A DNA stretch of 62,922 nucleotides, filler included, from Reclinomonas americana ATCC 50394 (taxonomy: Eukaryota): NCBI GenBank assembly GCA_048213135.1. It is 15 parts of 15 records of this genome, joined end to end, with 100 filler letters (N's around TTAATTAATTAA, not from the genome) between each part and the next. Parts side by side here need not be neighbours in the genome. Positions count along the whole stretch, not along the records: positions 50,784 to 60,760 come from AFZH01019434.1; 14 more parts are not named here. The stretch is one strand, 5' to 3'. Shown here piece after piece: positions 44,701 to 56,441 of the stretch; position 1 is the stretch's first letter; each line of letters begins with the position of its first letter. The notes under the pieces are model-generated. The model saw only the letters and a program-made list of their open reading frames with translations, was not told the origin of the DNA and made no database searches. The translations under genes and the position numbers were made by a program.

Positions 44701-47700
44701 GGTTGCCAGAGGAGCAGAACGAAGCGGTGTGGGACGTGCGGCAGCCATTTGTGCATGCCGATGTGCTGGGGAGATTCATCGTGTGGTGTGTGTGACGGGG
44801 ACACACTGCTGCGCGGCGGAAGAGAGAACCTGCTCATATTTGCATTGGTCGCAGGTTCGTGCGCATTTGTGGGCAAGAGACGGACACCGATGCCGATGAC
44901 AAGTTCCTTCGTCGGACCAAGTTGCGATTATTCCACGCTCTCTCAATCTCCGAACCCTCTCTACCTCCTGACGTTTCTTTCCTGCAGGGGTCGGGTGGAG
45001 GCGATCCTGTCGCACGTGGCCGACGAGTTTTGGGGATGTGCACGAGTGGAGGACCGTCGCCGATGGGCGGCGATTGCACACATTGCACTGCGCGAGGCGC
45101 TCACCACCGTCGTGTTTGACACGGATTCGTCGTTTACGAGTGCGTCTGATAACCGTTCTTCGCCCCCCTCCAATGTTGCTGATCAGCGATACAGCCGGAT
45201 TGCGTCTCGTCTGTATGCTCCTGCGTGACTCGGAGACATTTGACGTGTGCAGCAAGACGGCCGAGTTTTGGATTGTGCGGCAGCGCACCAGTGCCGTGCA
45301 GCGCACCACCTCCATCACTATGGTTCGCGTTCCCACCATGTGTGGTTGCACACAGTCTACTGTTCACACTTTTATTGTCTGCAGCTTGCACGTGCCCTTC
45401 TTCCCTACGTTCCCTCCAAGGCCGTGGCGCGTCAGTTGATGTTGGCGCTGGCCGGCGACTGCGACGGAATCTTTGAGGTTCCTGCGGCGCCGGTCGACGG
45501 TGATGTCACGTTGTGGCTGGTCCAGGTATGCGCGATGTTTCCGTGTGCTATCAACGAGCAGACTACTGAGCGACGACCAGGTGTACGGCTGTTATCTCCG
45601 TGCCAAACTCGTTCACCTGTCCACCCTACTTCGCGATTTTATCGACTGGCAGGAGGCCTTTCATTTGGAGCATCTGGCGCTGCTGGCGCCCGCGCGCAGT
45701 CTACCACGCTCGCCTCTGGTGAATCGCTTTGCGCATCGGCGATACTCGTTGCTGTTTGAGTTGTCGGTGATTGCACGCGTGTTGGAGGACCCGGAGTTGT
45801 GCGTGGTCAGTCGCGCGGATGTGTCGACTCCGTGGCTGTTCATGGACGCGACGGATGCGTGCGAGGCGAATGAGGTCACCACCACACTGCTCGAGTCGCT
45901 TCTGCAGTGTGTGCTGCGCATCGGCGACACGGTGTGCGGTCGAGTGTTGGCCGGCGACAGTGCCACCTCGGAGGTGCCTCACGTGGCCGAATTCATGCAA
46001 GCCGGAGGCCGCGGTGCGCTTGCGCGCGCCGTGACTGCATGTGCGTGTGCGGCGTCGCGCCTGCTGTTCACTGCTGCTGCTGTGCATCCAGCAAGCGCCA
46101 CAATCGACTCGGGCTACGGAGGCCCTCGCTGTGCGGCTGGGGCAGAGCCACAGCACCTGGCATCGGCGTGCTCATCGAGTCTGCGTCGAGTGAGCAGCTG
46201 CATTCTGCGCGCTCTCGGCAGTGACACGGCGGAGTTGAATGGACCGGGATCGTCGGGTCTCCCATCATCAATGCTGACTGCATTGGCGCCGATTGAAGCC
46301 GCCAAACTGGCGTTGCGTTTTCCAGGACTCCTCTCCTCTTTCTCCCCTCCAGCGTCTCACTCGTTCCACAGTGTTCTGCACGAACTGGCGCGCATGATGA
46401 CGCACGCTCCTCCGTCAGTCGTCGAGCTGGGCAAAGTCGCTTTGCACGTCATGGTGGCGCAGGATTTGCGCTTCCTCGAGAGGCACGATGCGCAGTTGCG
46501 CAAGCAGTTGCAGGCATACTTGCCAAGCAAGGCCGCCAGCGTGCCGCTGAATGCGCCGCCGATGGNNNNNNNNNNNNNNNNNNNNNNNNNNNNNNNNNNN
46601 NNNNNNNNNTTAATTAATTAANNNNNNNNNNNNNNNNNNNNNNNNNNNNNNNNNNNNNNNNNNNNTATGCGCCATGTTGTAGGTGTTCCCAGTTTGTCAC
46701 TCTCTTTCTCTTACCCGGAAAATCGCGGCGTCGCAGGCCTATGTGGCTGGCTGGGATGCTTTGTCGCTGCTGTCCCGCGCCATTGACGACCTGGACGAAG
46801 TCGACGCCGCAGGCCTGCTGCCGATCACGGCCGAGCAGCACCGTCTGGGGAACACGTTCCTCGCGCAGCGTCAGTGGGACCGTGCGTTGTCTGTGGCCGA
46901 TGCTGTGGGTGACAGAAGTGTGGCCGTGGTGGAGAGTTTGTCGCGTCTGGGCTTCATGCATGTGGCGGAGACGTATCTGCGCGGATTGTCGCCGGCAGCC
47001 TTGCAGAGCACACGAGAGTTGCCGGACTTTGCGTTTGAGTGTGCGTGGAGGAATGCCAAGTGGGATGTGGAGAATGCGCTGTCGGCAAGTGAGGTGGACG
47101 CGCCTGGTTTCCATCACGCTCTGTTTTCGTGTTTGCGTGCACTCCGCGTGCCCCACACATCCACTGCTGTGAGCGGTGAGGCCGGCGGCTTCGACGCAGA
47201 CATCCTGGACGAGAGCACGCAGGTGATGATCATGGACGACGATGATGGTGGTGACGGTGACAATGACAGGTTGAAGATGAGTCGAAATTCGACGATGCAT
47301 GTGGGACTGGCGTGGTTGGATGCGGCGGCTCTTCGTGCGCTGTCCATGTCGTGTCGAGCGGGTCGGCGCGACATGGTGTCGAGCTTGTTGCGCCTGCACT
47401 TGGTACGCGCTGTGGATGGTGTGATTTCGCAGCCGAGAACGGGACCGACGGAGGCGCTAGATGCGTGGAGAGCGGATCCGCTGACCAGCACCATGCGGTG
47501 GGATCGGCATCGCGAGGTGGAACAGCTGGGCGCATTGCGCAGCGTGCTCCTGCACGATGTGCTGCAGTCGAAAACCGACTATGTTCGTCTGGCCATGCAC
47601 ATGGCCAAGGTGGCACGCAAGCAGCAGTCGCCACAGCTGGCGATTCGGTACGCGGTTGCGGCCACCGAGTACGCCAAGTCGGCGAACTTCCTGCACGTAG

Positions 47701-50700
47701 AGGCCGAGTTGGAACTGGCAAAGGTGCGGTGTGACAACCAACCGTGCGGATAATGTCTTGCGTGCACTGAGTGCATTCTTGTGCAGGCGTTCTGGAGCTC
47801 TGGTCAGTTCAAGGTTGGCGCGGCTGTGGCGCACAAGGTGTTGGCAGAGCTGGGCAGTGGAATGGGTGTGGCATCGAGTTGCGCACGCAGGGAGAGAAGG
47901 GGTTGAGGTTCTCGTCATCCGTGTGTGTTTGCTCACGTACAACAGCGAGTGCACAAGCTGGTTGGGTGTGCATCTTGCTCGGTGGCTGGCTCAGTGAGGC
48001 GAGAATGGAGAATCCGGCCACCATCCGACGGGACTATCTGCAACGCGGTTTGCAGCTGCTGCAGGAGGACAGTGCGCGCGGTGGTGCCGGTGCCAGTGGC
48101 AAGATGCACTTTATGGTGGCCTCTTGTTGCGTAGATTTGCACGTTTCCCGATGTTCTCCTCCCGCTCCTCATGCCAGCACACATTTGCAGTCTACGATTC
48201 CATGTTGCAGACCATGGGTGCACGCGAGCAGGTGCGGTGTGCGACAACTGGCTGTTTGTAGCTCCTTCTCTCACTGTTGTGTGATTCAGAGTGCCGAGTG
48301 GGTGCAATCGCTGCAATTGTTGATGGATCTGCAGGCTGCGGTCGACCATGGCAACCAGACAGTGGTGCGTGGCATCCTGCTAGGCAATGCAAGTGTCTCC
48401 TCTCCTTTTCCTGACTCTCTGTGTCACCCTGGCAGCCGAAAGACAAATCCGAGTCCACCTCTGTGCTGCGCTCGATGAAACTGCAGTTGCGACGAGACAA
48501 CGAAAACGTGCAGCGCTTCCTGCAAGAGCGGTGCACGTTGCTGGTCGAGACCGTGCATCAGTATATTGCCGCTCTGCGGCTCGGCGTGCGGTGAGTGCTC
48601 GCCACCATTGTTGCTGCTACAACTCATCGTCTGTATGTGTGCTCATCTCCACGGCAGTGAATGGCGCCGATGCGCTTTCCGCCTGTGCACACTGTGGTTC
48701 GACAACAATTGTCACATGATGTCGGCATCCCTGCGCAACGTCCCCGATGTCCGCGGCTACCTGCTGGTGAGTGTGCGAGAGTGGGTCGATGGAAATGCCT
48801 TGTGTGTTGACCCTCGCATGATTGCAGCGCACATTTGCCGCCGAGATGGTGTCGCATCCCGTGCACGAAGCCATGGAACAGATCGTGGAGCCGCCGCTGT
48901 TCTTCTTCTTACCCATTGGCTATCAGATTGCATCGCGACTGGGCGAGCACTTTGACGAAGCGCCCAGCTGGTCGGCTCTGGTGAGGGCGCTGGTCGAGGC
49001 CATGTGCAGAGAGCACCCGCATCATATGCTGTGTCACGTGGTGGCGTTGAGCCGCGGTGATGACGTCAGTGGTTTGCGCAATGCAAGTGCGTACGAATTC
49101 GACCCGGCCAAGGTTGCCGCCGCCAAGGGTGAGTGGTCAGCTGGAAAACGAACGCATACCACGGGCTCTCTTTTGACCTCGTTTGTGTGTGTAGCCATTC
49201 TGCAAAGTGTTCGTGGCGAGCCCGACACTGCTGCCGGGCAGTACATCCAAGCGCTCGATCAGTTGGTACCGGCCTATATTCAGCTGGCAAATGTCAAAGT
49301 CAACACGTGCGTGCATGCGTGCTGTTTCAATGCTTCCCGTCGTTGTTTGCTCACCAGCATGATGTTGCAGCACGACGGCCGCCACCAAGTATAAAATGTC
49401 GGCGCTGCTGGGAGAGATTGTGGAGATGTTGGAGAACAAGGCCGTGGAGCGCCGCCTGCCAGTAATTACCGCACAAATGCCCGTCCGGTCTGGCGCGGCG
49501 GTCGATGACGATGAGGTTTGACTGTGCCATGATCTCCGAGTTGTGTGTGTGTGTGTGTGTGCTCATGGTCGTCTGCGTGCAGTTCCCGCACATCCAAACC
49601 ATGGACAAACATTTCCGACTGGTGGGCGGCATCAATGCGCCGCGCCGAATGACAGTGTTGGACTCGGCTCTCGTGCGCCACATGCAACTGGTGAAGGGCA
49701 ACGATGACATGCGGCAGGACGCCGTCGTGCAGCAACTCTTTGAGTTTGTCAATGTGTTGCTTCGCGAAGACAGCCGCTCCAGCGAGCGTGGCTTGCAGAT
49801 GCGCACATACAAGGTTTGCAACTCGTGAACAACATTTGATGGTGATCTCTTGTCTGCTCACATCTCTGCGTTGCAGGTGGTTCCTCTGTCTCCCGTCACT
49901 GGCGTACTCGAGTGGGTGCAGCGCACGATTCCGATTGGCGAGTACTTGCTCGGCCCAGCACGGTTGCGTGATTTTGTTCTCGCTGTGATTCACCGCCACA
50001 CCCACTCACACGCTCTTTGCAGTGAGAATTGTGCGACTGGCGCGCACAAGCGGCTGTATCCGAGTGATTTGAGTCATCCTCGCTGTCGCGAGGTCATGAC
50101 CGGATGCAGCAGCGATCGCAAGGTTTGACACCATCGAGGTGTCAAACCTAAGAAGACTCTCGTGGATTCACTCTGTTTTGTGCAGCTCGACATCTTCATG
50201 GAAGTCTGCTCGCGCTTCCACCCAGTCATGCGCCACTTCTTCTTCGAGCACTTTCCCGACGTGCGCGACTGGTTCTCGCGCCGGGTGAATTACACGCGGA
50301 GGTTTGTGGCGTGAGTGCTTCGTGGTACCATTTTTCACTCCAATGTGACCAGCACCCTCTCCAGTGTGGCCGTGAGTTCCATGGTCGGCTACATTGTCGG
50401 CCTCGGTGATCGGCACTCGCAGAACATTCTGCTCGACGTGAACACTGCGGAGGTGGTGCACATCGATCTCGGTGTGGCCTTTGAGCAGGGCAAGATGCTG
50501 GCGGTGCCGGAGGAGATCCCGTTCCGTCTCACTCGCGACCTTGTGGACGGCCTGCTGTGCAGTCGGTACGAGGGTGTGTTCGAGCAGAGCGCGGTGGAGA
50601 CGCTGCGAGTGATGCAACAGCAGAAGCAGTTGCTGTTGACGCTGGTCGAGGTGTTTGTGCACGATCCTCTCTTCAAGTGGTCGNNNNNNNNNNNNNNNNN

Positions 50701-51014
50701 NNNNNNNNNNNNNNNNNNNNNNNNNNNTTAATTAATTAANNNNNNNNNNNNNNNNNNNNNNNNNNNNNNNNNNNNNNNNNNNNGCGGCTGCAGCGGCGGC
50801 GGCGTCTGCTGCGGCGGCAGCTGCTGCCTCGGCCACCACAGGTGGCGGCAGTCGACAGGCCGAGCGAGCGCTGCTGCGCGTCTCCGAAAAGCTGCACGGT
50901 GTCGAGGAGGGCCAGCATTACTCCACCGAGGGTCAAGTGCGACAGCTGATTCAGCAGGCCACCGATCCGGAGCGCCTGTCGCGACTGTTTCCCGGTTGGG
51001 GCGCGTGGGTGTGA
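41719..51014 (+). CDS. ATM: ATM/Tel1 PIKK serine/threonine kinase (5' part lost in gap; two internal gaps)
   Basis: FAT region ([45 protein letters not shown]). Kinase: GGINAPRR...[19 protein letters not shown]...RTYKVVPLSP...[17 protein letters not shown]...[60 protein letters not shown]. Confidence 0.95.
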
Positions 51015-51494: not shown

Positions 51495-54400
51495 ATGCGA
51501 CGCGGTGCTTCTCCCTCCAGCAGTCGCAGCAGTGCGCGTGCGCACACTGTGGCCGCTGTGTTGGCTCTGACAGTGCTGATTGCGGTGGCGGGAATGAGTG
51601 TGGTGCCCGTGTCGGCGACGCCGGCGAGTGTCACAGATTACCTGGCGAATATCGTGGCCATCTTTGGCGCGGTGAGAGGGGGAGAGGAGGAGAGGAAGAG
51701 AGAGAGAGAAAATGGCAGTCAACAGATGCGATTGCATGCATGCATGATGATCAGAAGGGGCAGCAGCAGTGGCTGGCATCGCTCTGACAGGTTGCAGCTC
51801 TTGTTGTCACAGTCGGAGGGTCACTCTCCCACCTCTCCGTGCTCAATGGCCTCTTTGCATGATCCTCTTGTCGCTCTGGACCCGTTAGGAAGAGAGAGAG
51901 AACTTCGCTCAGGCAGGGTGCAGCTCCTCTTGTCGCAGTCGACGGATCGCTCTCCCACTACTCTGTGCTCCTTCGTGTCCTCACCGCATGATCCTCTTGT
52001 CGTTCTCTCATCCTTTGACCTTCAAATCATGCTCCTTGAGTTTCAGAATGGGACAGTTGCTGCTCCTCCTCTTGCTCCTCCTGCTACTCGTCTTCTCCCT
52101 TCATGTGAACCGTTTGCCACTGATGCTGCGCACGGTTCTTGGTGAAACGAGCGCCGTTGGATTTGTGTTTTTTGCTGATCACTTGACGTTGTCACACACA
52201 GGGCAATCCCGACAATGGATGGGTGCGGAATCGCAGTGGACAAGTGGAAGGTCAGTTCTTCTTCTACTCCTCCTTCCTCCTCCTTCTCCTTTCTTGGTGA
52301 TTCCCTGGTCGCCATGACACGAGAACATGCAATTCGGTGTTTGTCACGGGACCTCTCATGATACTGATACACACCCACAGTCGGTCTGCGTGCCAAGCAG
52401 CGATTCGGCCAGGTCACCAACAATGTGACGAACAACGTCTACTCGTACCCGGCGATTGCCGGTGCGAATGCTTCCTTGGCCGACTGGAATTACGAGTTCT
52501 CAGTGGTGCGTCGCATTTGCTCCACACGATCTCTTTTCTCGCACTGCTCCACTCACTTCCACATCTGTCTTGTGTGGCGCAGTGCGTGCGGGGTACACGT
52601 CCCCCAACCCTGTGTCTGTTGCGCGCCCTGACATGTTACACAGGGACACCAACTACGATGGCACTGGATCCTTGACGCTGGCCGATGTGACAGTGTCGCT
52701 GTCCATCGATCCCAACCCCTCTCTGTACAAGCAGGTTTGTGTTGCGCGAATGTTCAATGCTATCAGCCCCCCTCCCATCGCACTGAGGCGTGGACTGCGT
52801 TTTCCTCCTGCCTTCCAGTTCGTCGGGGTGAACATGCTGACAACGTACACGGATAACTCGCTGGGTACGCTGCTACCTCTTCTTCTCCGTGCCTTTCCCC
52901 ATTCAACCAGCTCATCGGATCAATGTGTGCACAGGCATCTTCAGCACCGCCAACTCGCAGGGTGTCGAGCCGGGACTCTCCGCCGATCTCTCGCAGTACA
53001 CCAAGGCGCAGAACAGTCAGAATCTGGGTTGGACGCCGGGTGAGTACACTGTTGTTGCTTGTTTGTATTCTGCTTGGAATGCTACTCACCTCTGTGCAGG
53101 CGCCAACTACAACCCGCTTGCCAATGGTGTCTACGACTTCAAACTGGAGGTCAAGAACCAATCCAATGTCCTTCTGGCCTCTGTCTCCATGACTGTCATT
53201 GTCGGCACGGCGCCGGGCACGTACGACCAGAATGTGACGTCGAATGTGATTTTTGGCTCCGGCAACGCCAACGGCTCGTGGACTGTCGATCGTGAGAACA
53301 ATGTCGAAGGTGTGCAGTTTGAATCCAGCACCGCATCTAATCAGCAGGCAAGATGTACTCAGTACTCTTTATTCAGTGGCGCTGCGTGGCAAGGTCCGCG
53401 GTCAAAACGGTACGCATGCAGTCAACATCTTTGTGTCGCCACATCATCCCCTGACTCTCGTCTGCCTTTGCACACACGTAGTGTTCAACTCCAATGGTGA
53501 CGGCACTTACTCGTTTACCACCGGAACCACCGGCACCTCGCCGAATCTCCGTGCCGTGTTGCGTCCCTCTGCACGCTTCTCAATCCTGTTCCTCCACTTT
53601 TCTCATCCAGGGACGCTTGTGTGCACGCAGGTGGAACTTTGAGTTCTCGGTTGCGTGCCGTCTCTGCGATTCACCTTCGCCACACATCCCTAGATGCTGA
53701 ACTCTCCTTGTTTTTCTCTCCACCTCCACACACAGATCAATGTCGACCTCGATGGTCAGCAGGGACGCAAGTTGAGCGACGTGACGGCTACCCTGGATAT
53801 TGATGGCGATCCATCTGCGGCCGCCAACATCAACCAGATGTCGATCAATCCGCTCACCTTCTTCCCCGACAATGCTGTCGGTGAGCGCTCGTCCTGTGAA
53901 AGTGGGGACTCATCTGGTACCGATACTTGCGTGTGCGACAGGCACGGGTGCAACCGCGAATGGTGGTGGAGTCAATGGCGCTCCACTGACATCTGGCTCG
54001 GTGGCGCAGAATTCGGAAAACCTAACGTGCGCCGCACGTCCCTTGCACCTTGTCTGCTTCGTGTGATTTCCCCCCTCACCATGTTGTGCAGGTTTTCGGT
54101 GTTTGCCCCGCTGAGCTTCAACCCGAATGTCGCCGCCGCCTACACGTTCGCGCTGTCGGTCACCAACCCACTGAACAGCGCGCTGCTCGCCCGAGTGCAG
54201 ATTGTCATGTGCGTCGCCCTCTCTTCTCTCCCTCCCTCCTCCCCCTCCTCCATCTCGTCTCACTGTGTGTAGTCTGGTGGGCGGTGGCCCGTCGCCGTAC
54301 ATTTTCGGCTTGATCCCGGTGACAACGCCTCTCAACCTGCCCACGCCCGCCTTGACTGCCGTTGGCACAGTGAACGCCGGCGATGGACACGTGAATCCGT

Positions 54401-56092
54401 CGCTGACCTACACTCTGGTCAGCGGAGATGGAGACACATTCAACTCGTTCTTCACCCTCAATTCCTCCACTGGCGCACTGGCTGTCGGTGCTAGTGGCCT
54501 GCCCGCCACGCTGTCGACACCGCTGTCGTTGCGTTTGTCGGTCAGCAACACCGCTGGCATGACCACCGGCAACATTCTGGTCGCCGTCAACGTGGCGCCA
54601 CTCCTCACATACGGACCCACGTCGTACGCCGAAGACATTCAGCCGGGTCACGATTTCGGCGAGCTGCACGCGTTTGACATTGATGGCACCGGACCGTTCA
54701 CGTTTGTCATTGACACCTCGTTCCCCGACGACTGGTCTCGTGAGTAGTCTATGTGACGACGGCTTTTTTTTCGTTTGCGTGTGTGTTAACAAGCTTTTCG
54801 TTGCGCAGGATTCGACATCTTTGAAGGCCATCTGATTGCCTCCGACGGACTGTACAACTCTACCAGCACCTTGCCGGACACGCTGACTGTTCACGTGGCG
54901 GCGATCGACGAGCACTCTAACCGACAGATTACGGCGTCGGCGATTGTGCTCACCAAACTCGCCAAGCCGTCCAGTGAGTGCTCCCAGACGTGAAAACAAC
55001 AGCTCCTCGATGCCCTCATCACGCTCACCCATGCCACGCAGATATGCAACTCATTCCCAGCTCATTCGACTCGCCGACGGCCGTCGACAATGTGGTGGTC
55101 GGCACACTCTCTGTCACCTCCGCCAATCAAGTGCAATGGACGCTGTTGACCCTGGCCTCCATCTTTGATGTGGTGCCGAAGCCGGGCACCAGCACCCCCG
55201 ATGCCTTGCTGCGCGTCATCAACGCCTCCACATCGTTGCCGTCGGCAGTGCAAGTCAAGGTTCGCGCCACCGACACGGTGACCGGGCAGTCGTTGGAGAG
55301 CTTGGTGACGGTGACACCAAACGCGGTCAGCACGCCCAACTTGTCCATCTCGTGCCCGTCGCCACTGTGTAACGGCTCCGGCTGCGACACCATCACTGGC
55401 CAGTGCTCGGGTGTGTGCCCGCCGGGGTGAGTGATGGATTTTTCTGCTTGTCGCGATTTTTCGTAGCAGTCGCTCACCCACATGGCCAGACAAGTGACAA
55501 CCACCAATGGTGTGTGCGCCGGTCTCCGCAAGGTCACGTGCCAGACCGATCAGCTGGTGGCCATTTGTCCGCCGGGCTCCAATGTGCAGATCCTGAAGGC
55601 CGTGTGGGGACGCACCAATGGCTCGAACTGCGGCGGTGGTGACGGCTACTGTGCCAGTGATTTGGAGAGCGTTGGTTTGTGTGTGTGCAGATACGCGCAC
55701 GGCCCTTTGTTCTCTTGAATTTTCTCACTCATTATCCTCTGCCATACACACTCAGGTGTGTTGCAGTCGCTCTGCAACAACCTGTCGCGGTGCCAGTTCT
55801 CGCTCGCTCTCGGCCTGCAGCTCTTTGGCAATCCGTTGCGTTCAGTGGTGCTGTGAGTGACCACAGGCGAGGGCTGCTAACGCGTGTCCCAACAGTCCGT
55901 GCTCGAACTCGGGCTCTGCATTCATGGACTGGGAGGTGAGAGAGAGAATGTGTGCACGAAGGTGATGTGATGCTGAACTCTCTCGCGCAGTTTGAGTGCA
56001 TTGTCAGCCCACCGGTCCCGCTGCCGTCGCCCTCGAGCAACTACGCACCGGTCTACGTGTACGGCACTTCGCCATCGCTGGCCGGCATGTAA
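51495..56092 (+). CDS. Secreted mosaic protein: signal peptide, 2x bacterial PEP-CTERM-associated-type domain, ~3 cadherin-like repeats, short Cys-rich (EGF-like) module, SUEL/galactose-rhamnose lectin domain
   Basis: About 19 exons chain in frame. Repeats IFGAGNPDNGW...VEVGLRAK...WNYEFSVDTNYDG...AQNSQNLGW and IFGSGNANGSWTVDRENNVEVALRGK...FNSNGDGTYSF...WNFEFSINVDLDG...AQNSENL. Cadherin-like VGTVNAGDG...LTYTLVSGDGDTFNSFFTLNSSTGAL. Lectin CQTDQLVAICPPGSNVQILKAVWGRT...C...LCNNLSRCQF...FGNPPC...FEC. Confidence 0.8.
52505..52643 (+). other. Putative spliceosomal twin intron (stwintron), [D1,2] or equivalently [A2,3]
   Basis: G|GTGCGT...(77 nt)...CGCAG|TGCGTG...ACACAG|G. Removing 52506-52582 creates a new GTGCGT donor; removing the resulting 62-nt intron gives TCA GT+G GAC (E-F-S-V-D-T-N-Y-D-G). 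Confidence 0.75.
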
Positions 56093-56360: not shown

Positions 56361-56441
56361 CTCCTCTCTTTCGCGGCGGGGTACTCGTTGCGCGCAGAGT
56401 GTGTCTTCTCCACCAACAACCTCTCTCTCTCTCTTGTGCAC

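Follow-up and report, generated by a model that had tools for sequence, protein, structure and literature searches.

A candidate [D1,2]/[A2,3] spliceosomal twin intron in an intron-rich gene, probably outside the fungi

Introduction

Spliceosomal twin introns (stwintrons), in which one intron lies inside a splice site of another, were described from fungi alone in the literature searched, namely from Pezizomycotina and the yeast genus Lipomyces, and no non-fungal case was found in the available parts of those sources (including PMC5587772, PMC9024468, PMC12403724 and PMC5639578). Alternatively spliced stwintrons of the [D1,2]/[A2,3] type are reported, in the accessible text of PMC5587772, as proven experimentally for the alternative oxidase gene of Helminthosporium solani and the DHA1 antiporter gene of Trichoderma reesei. 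The present report concerns a 139-nucleotide (nt) interval (52505-52643, plus strand) of a 62,922-nt stretch of DNA (the window), located within the contig at 50784-60760 and inside a surface-protein gene modelled by hand at 52048-56091. The interval is read as a candidate stwintron of the same type, with a probability of about 0.7, in which two canonical short U2-type introns would share one base, G52582.

As the available parts of PMC5587772 present them, the [D1,2]/[A2,3] stwintrons of Pezizomycotina resemble the present interval in having two canonical U2-type introns that overlap by one G, with a flanking G on each side, in giving the same mRNA with either order of excision, and in having short pieces of intron-definition size. 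They differ from it in that the GTGCGT donors and the CTCAC motif found here lie outside the Aspergillus nidulans consensus, the host is probably no fungus, and the case is known here from sequence alone.

The sister [D1,2] stwintrons of Hypoxylaceae and Xylariaceae are repeated and internally symmetrical and propagate within the genome, according to the portions available of PMC9024468, PMC12403724 and PMC8469720. The interval shares with them the [D1,2] architecture. Unlike them, neither the interval nor its halves had a second copy in the 62.9-kb window (blastn), the halves were not alike (z = 0.37; 38% of shuffles scored as well), and the fold z-score was -1.48. Introners and introner-like elements (PMC9860276, in its available part) offer a possible route for a new intron into the donor of an older one; there was no evidence that the interval belongs to them, because neither terminal repeats nor repeated copies were found around it in the window. 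An introner or duplication origin is not favoured by the lack of a copy in the window, the unlike halves and the fold z-score.

Zero-nucleotide recursive splicing in Drosophila (bioRxiv 10.1101/006163, in the part available) resembles the process proposed here in that a 5' splice site is re-created after the first step and the intron is removed piecewise. Its ratchet points have the form AG|GT without a shared base, lie in very long introns and leave the frame arithmetic unchanged, whereas the present interval shares G52582, consumes an exon base and has both pieces shorter than 80 nt. A recursive splice site (zero-nucleotide exon) was rejected because the AG at 52581-82 and the GT at 52582-83 share G52582.

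Anatomy and frame of the interval

Exon 3 (52381-52505) ended in TGG AAT TAC GAG TTC TCA GTG (WNYEFSV; last base 52505) and was followed directly by the donor GTGCGT (52506-52511). Exon 4 (52644-52734) began with G52644, directly 3' of the last AG, and continued from 52645 with GAC ACC AAC TAC GAT GGC (DTNYDG). A preliminary description of this locus had claimed that the interval holds just two AGs, the first of them overlapping a donor; coordinates bore this out, with AG at 52581-82 and at 52642-43 as the only two between 52506 and 52643, and a second GTGCGT (52582-52587) overlapping the first AG by one base, G52582.

At the sequence level, internal intron A (52506-52582, 77 nt) had its own donor (GTGCGT, 52506-11), its own branch-like element (CTCAC, 52552-56, with its A 27 nt 5' of G52582) and its own acceptor (CAG, 52580-82). 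Internal intron B (52582-52643, 62 nt) had GTGCGT at 52582-87, the branch-like CTGAC at 52628-32 (its A 12 nt 5' of G52643) and CAG at 52641-43, and G52582 was both the last base of the AG of intron A and the first base of the GT of intron B. Branch-like motifs of this sort also occurred in the other introns of the gene. An imperfect hairpin (52540-52586; arms 52540-55 and 52571-86, 16 nt, 88% complementary) enclosed CTCAC, the branch-like element of intron A, together with the overlap between AG and GT. Joining G52505 to TGCGT (52583-87) re-formed GTGCGT, a donor split between its nucleotides 1 and 2 as in [D1,2] stwintrons, and left an external intron of 62 nt with CTGAC and CAG. Joining A52581 to G52644 re-formed CAG, with the G directly 3' of the outer acceptor as in [A2,3] stwintrons.

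Removal of 138 nt (52506-52643) shifted the frame and gave a first stop at codon 120, 43 codons past the junction. Removal of 139 nt, as in the two-step product, left the frame open in all exons of the 20-exon hand model.

Two orders of excision are proposed. In the first, intron A would be excised and G52505 joined to T52583, giving a new GTGCGT donor with G52505 as its base 1; the 62-nt external intron would then be excised by way of the CTGAC region and the CAG at 52641-43, and T52504 would be joined to G52644, base 3 of a GTG (Val) codon. In the second, excision of intron B would join A52581 to G52644 and re-create a CAG acceptor with G52644 as its last base, after which a 77-nt external intron would be excised and G52505, here the last exon base, joined to G52645. 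Both orders would yield an identical mRNA in which WNYEFSV is followed directly by DTNYDG, and the same claim made in the preliminary description agreed with the anatomy and the frame arithmetic. If the outer GT and the outer AG were used in one step, the message would be out of frame and would soon reach a stop. The anatomy, the frame arithmetic and the peptide that the homologues require (below) are observations; from them we infer the two steps, in which the spliceosome would match every donor to the branch and acceptor closest to it (intron definition).

Peptide required by the homologues

The interval lies in D1, the first of two PepA-like, bacterial-type domains (D1 and D2) of the host gene. 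An exhaustive HMMER search with positions 52937-53308 of the window as the query (contiguous, reading through an in-frame 60-nt intron) found 108 relatives at E ≤ 1e-3, the best of them 48% identical. They looked mostly bacterial and were mostly of about 250 amino acids (aa), with PEP-CTERM tails and a weak, below-cut-off similarity to the flocculation protein PepA. Three of the 10 top-hit clusters looked up were named, and all three were bacterial.

The expression W-[NS]-x-[ED]-x-[SA]-[VI] occurred 100 times in 88 of the 108 relatives, and the other 20 had no match to it. The residue at position 8 after W was N in 94 and D in 3 of the 100 instances, and V in none. The pattern [YFWLIV][DN]G stood at positions 11-13 in 31/100 instances and one place later in 0/100. 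In an alignment with ten homologues, the end of exon 3 (its last residue in the [VI] column) and the first residue of exon 4 fell in adjacent columns, and the D2 exon started one column earlier. Since the family motif has [VI] followed directly by N or D, exactly 139 nt must go, with WNYEFSV joined to DTNYDG. The claim that D2 reads WNFEFS-INVDLDG and D1 WNYEFS-VDTNYDG agreed with the coordinates and with the alignment of homologues.

Splice paths and site strength

Each GT or GC donor in 52440-52530 was combined with each AG in 52560-52700, as single introns or as micro-exon pairs. The enumeration yielded 95 stop-free in-frame products, which with the two-step product made 96 candidates, and these were scored against a profile built from 72 homologues. 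Two-step removal of 139 nt scored best of the 96 (157.5 bits), and the rival paths were 6-22 bits below it. No single GT-AG intron kept EFSV beside DTNYDG, and GT-flanked micro-exons of 3, 10 or 16 nt were in frame only with other, weak donors; the enumeration upheld the preliminary description on both points.

A weight matrix for scoring splice sites was derived from the other 18 introns of the host gene. Donor 52506 outscored 11/18 real donors, donor 52582 outscored 8/18 in its genomic context, and the donor re-formed with G52505 after step 1 outscored 14/18. Real acceptors were outscored by the internal acceptor 52582 (10/18), the outer acceptor 52643 (14/18) and the acceptor re-formed from A52581 and G52644 (10/18).

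A single GC-AG intron (52508-52643) ranked third of the 96 candidates (151.0 bits). It is in frame and stop-free: the exon would end GTG GT and G52644 would complete a second Val, giving WNYEFSVV and then DTNYDG, one residue longer. The option is always present, since every GTGCGT donor has GC at +3/+4. The product scored 6.5 bits below the two-step product, and the family had V at motif position 8 in 0/100 instances and the +1 spacing of [YF]DG also in 0/100. The GC site at 52508 outscored 2/18 real donors, and GGT|GCGTCG scored below 16/18 of them even with the +2 position ignored; GC-AG or other non-canonical introns numbered 0 among 23 homology-supported introns (18 of the host gene and 5 of a pyrophosphatase gene elsewhere in the window). 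The GC site should face competition from the strong GT donor that lies 2 nt upstream of it, and the internal site would be left as a coincidence. A GC-AG intron is very unlikely on this evidence.

An upstream cryptic donor, GA|GTTCTC (52496), with the AG at 52643 would make up one canonical GT-AG intron. The product is in frame, has no stop and would lack F-S-V. It scored 138.5 bits vs. 157.5 for two-step removal, and the three lost residues were kept in 100/100 motif instances of the family. The codons TTC TCA GTG still encode residues conserved in D2 and in the family, and GTTCTC outscored 2/18 real donors, scoring below the other 16, at the 27th percentile of decoy GTs. Use of this donor is exceedingly improbable.

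Splicing around a micro-exon, or partial retention, has scarcely any credibility. A 5-nt exon (52583-87) with a GC donor would add C-V, and an intron from GT52510 to AG52582 would leave 52583-52644, the 3' half, as coding sequence for a 21-residue insertion. Both products are in frame and stop-free, and the micro-exon product reached 151.2 bits. These paths call for weak donors (GC or GTCGCA) and for an exon of 5 nt, and such insertions were absent from the family; the scores (151.2 and 135.6 vs. 157.5 bits) and the spacing census agreed in disfavouring them.

One-step non-canonical splicing, GG-AG (52505-52643) or GT-GG (52506-52644), with U1 on GTGCGT and cleavage off by one base, would also yield the correct mRNA and could therefore not be distinguished from two-step removal by mature cDNA alone. 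None of the 23 homology-supported introns was non-canonical, and the internal canonical acceptor/donor pair, complete with a branch-like motif, would be left as an unexplained coincidence. This mode of splicing is slightly less credible than the GC-AG intron and somewhat more so than use of the upstream donor.

Chance, sequence error and weight against the twin intron

The chance of an internal site was estimated with 40000 simulated 138-nt introns, generated by Markov models for which the interiors of the 18 introns served as training data; training that included the splice-site ends inflated the rates to 1.3-5.6%, and interior-only training was used instead. An internal YAG|T completing a donor seen in the gene, with both halves of at least 43 nt, arose in 506-522 of the 40000 (1.3%), and in 144-170 (0.4%) when a branch-like motif 9-42 nt upstream was also required. 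When the interior of the interval itself was shuffled, the rate was 1.3%, and with the branch-like motif 0.2%.

A sequence error, or a real 1-nt insertion in a very young pseudogene or allele, would place one G too many at 52505-06 or 52643-45; the intron would then be an ordinary GT-AG intron and the internal CAG|TGCGT a coincidence. The sequence is a draft scaffold, interrupted by 14 gap spacers that lie at microsatellites, and both candidate sites are short G runs (GG at 52505-06, GGG at 52643-45). This explanation needs two rare events, an error within about 5 specific bases and a chance internal site (0.4-1.3%). The coding sequence without a frame break on the same contig amounted to about 4.7 kb (about 2.5 kb of the host gene, plus two WD40 genes), and the host gene was intact across 16 further exons. 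Sequence error or insertion is improbable overall.

Several results weigh against the twin intron. One extra G at either of the two G runs in a gapped scaffold would suffice to mimic it, and the chance rate above is small yet not negligible when many windows are scanned. The internal acceptor and the donor at 52582 were just mid-range by weight matrix, and the fold of the whole interval was not significant. The window held a single such case. The published search pattern, derived from A. nidulans (GGTRWGY N25-120 DYTRAY N4-24 HAGTRWGY N25-120 DYTRAY N4-24 HAG, as given in the available text of PMC5587772), had 0 matches in the window; it is a search aid for one fungus and not a definition. The mismatches lay in GTGCGT, which has C at donor position 4 (not GTRWGY), and in CTCAC, which has C where R is required (not DYTRAY). 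Finally, no orthologue showing conservation of the position, or a canonical intron shifted by 1 nt, was found in metagenome contigs.

A [D1,2] pattern adapted to the gene's own donors and branch motifs gave 3 matches on the plus strand, 52505-52643 among them, and 0 on the minus strand. The other two, at 13627 and 17379, were rejected as false, being exon sequence or an ordinary intron followed by exon. An exact 30-mer of exon 4 had 0 matches in metagenomes, and a protein-level metagenome scan gave 361 pattern matches, none of them confirmed. A 155-aa exon had just 2 weak matches among longer proteins, one of them named and bacterial. Neither the protein collections nor the metagenomes searched yielded a close relative, and annotated or transcript-derived copies of the host gene were absent from those collections. 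Rfam families and tRNAs were looked for and none were found.

Host gene and sister domain

The hand model of the host gene comprised 20 exons on the plus strand, from ATG 52048 to the stop at 56091. It encoded a signal peptide, D1 and D2, cadherin-like repeats and a C-terminal SUEL-lectin-like, cysteine-rich part. Pfam matches were weak (cadherin, SUEL_Lectin), and no family was found by Pfam with single exons of D1/D2. The D1/D2 family region (52202-54208) was fused to the cadherin-like repeats and the SUEL-lectin-like end in an intron-rich eukaryotic gene; the bacterial-type domains may have been acquired from bacteria long ago, with many introns gained afterwards.

Every one of the other 18 introns in the host gene was GT-AG and kept the frame; their lengths spanned 43-130 nt (median 68.5). 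Introns A and B (77 and 62 nt) fell inside this range, in agreement with the earlier claim that both pieces are of normal size, and a 138-nt interval would exceed every other intron of the gene. Length counts for little here, since introns of about 140 and about 470 nt occur in the pyrophosphatase gene. The homology-placed introns of that gene, on the other strand, were GT-AG in 5/5 cases.

GTGCGT had been called one of the commonest donors. It ranked 6th of 256 GT-hexamers in the window (90 copies, both strands), in line with that statement; as a used donor it appeared in 1 of the 18 other host-gene introns (54209), vs. 5 of 18 for GTGAGT, which was not. GC-rich green algae typically have GTGCGT and GTGAGT donors. 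The donor GTTGCGT occurred in 4/23 homology-supported introns (53558 and 53650; about 32950 and 31926 on the minus strand); it has C, not G, at +5 and resembles GTGCGT plus one T.

The intron at 53040-53099 was 60 nt long, a multiple of three, and had no in-frame stop; its retention would add 20 residues. D1 and D2 shared two intron positions in the same phase, 52250/53309 (after V-E plus G) and 52864/53880 (after D-N-x-x plus G), and their remaining introns were private to one copy. The shared positions suggest introns already present before the internal duplication, or introns gained in parallel at similar sites.

D2 had a plain GT-AG intron (53650-53735, plus strand) between the S and I codons of WNFEFS|INVDLDG. 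It lay 3 nt upstream of the point that corresponds to 52505|52506, or 2 nt when the external intron is taken. Only intron shifts of 1 nt are accounted for by the published stwintron mechanism (PMC5587772, in the part available), so the introns of D1 and D2 are to be regarded as nearby discordant positions and not as a demonstrated shift. The suggestion in the preliminary description that the D2 intron captures an intron shift is poorly supported on these distances. Its broader interpretation of the interval as a stwintron fared better, in that the anatomy matches [D1,2]/[A2,3] and the homologues require the product; the intron-shift part of it is weak.

Taxonomic setting and implications

Affinities of two genes of the window offer weak leads to the host. 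The best Protein Data Bank (PDB) matches of a pyrophosphatase exon were plant enzymes, and its best named collection matches were bacteria, Chromera and Vitrella (78-83% identity over about 41 residues). The FAT region of an ATM-like gene had Streptophyta and Chlorophyta clusters as Atlas neighbours. The pyrophosphatase and the FAT region thus point, tentatively, to plants or algae and not to fungi. The case probably lies outside the fungi; that the twin intron is real and, jointly, that the host is an alga or another protist and not a fungus falls a little short of an even chance.

Automatic GT-AG gene models fail at sites of this kind. If the twin intron is real and its host is an alga or another protist, excision of an intron from inside a splice site would be a general property of eukaryotes with short introns and intron definition, and not a fungal oddity, and automatic annotation would systematically break genes of this kind. 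A confirmed non-fungal case would imply that the lineage concerned also pairs its donors and acceptors across individual short introns, that stwintrons can lead to 1-nt intron shifts and to intron gain beyond fungi as well, and that such genes are mis-predicted by gene finders demanding single GT-AG introns. A genome-wide search, its pattern adapted to the lineage, would then be warranted. For annotation, an intron that is apparently off by one and holds an internal YAG|T completing a donor is better modelled as two steps than by frameshift repair. A twin intron in a 19-intron gene with bacterial-type N-terminal domains may preserve the trace of a young intron that inserted into another intron's donor.

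Other features of the window

Fourteen spacers lay in the window between 6143 and 60860 (e.g., 50684-50783 and 60761-60860), each made of 44 N, TTAATTAATTAA and 44 N. TTAATTAATTAA is a 12-nt stop linker, and most spacers were flanked by microsatellites or CT-rich low-complexity repeats.

On the contig of the studied locus, two tandem intronless WD40-repeat paralogues (56430-57521 and 57735-58809) had a conserved, unusual C-terminal tail, and a similar stretch lay upstream of each. An ATM-like phosphatidylinositol 3-kinase-related kinase (PIKK) gene with FAT and PI3/PI4-kinase matches (36558-51000, plus strand) spanned three scaffold gaps. Its N-terminal 875-residue open frame had no relative among the longer proteins searched, and the Atlas neighbours of its kinase exon were Foraminifera, Zoopagomycota and Chordata clusters.

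The pyrophosphatase gene (31390-33160, minus strand) encoded a soluble inorganic pyrophosphatase of the plant/prokaryotic type and had at least 5 GT-AG introns, and its intron of about 470 nt was CT-rich and of low complexity. One exon of the gene probably lies inside the gap at 32719-32818. AT skew was strong and strand-switching at 6001-20000 and 26001-34000 (-0.48 to +0.54, measured per 2 kb). The skew seems to track which strand is transcribed, the introns being T-rich and C-rich when read on the coding strand.

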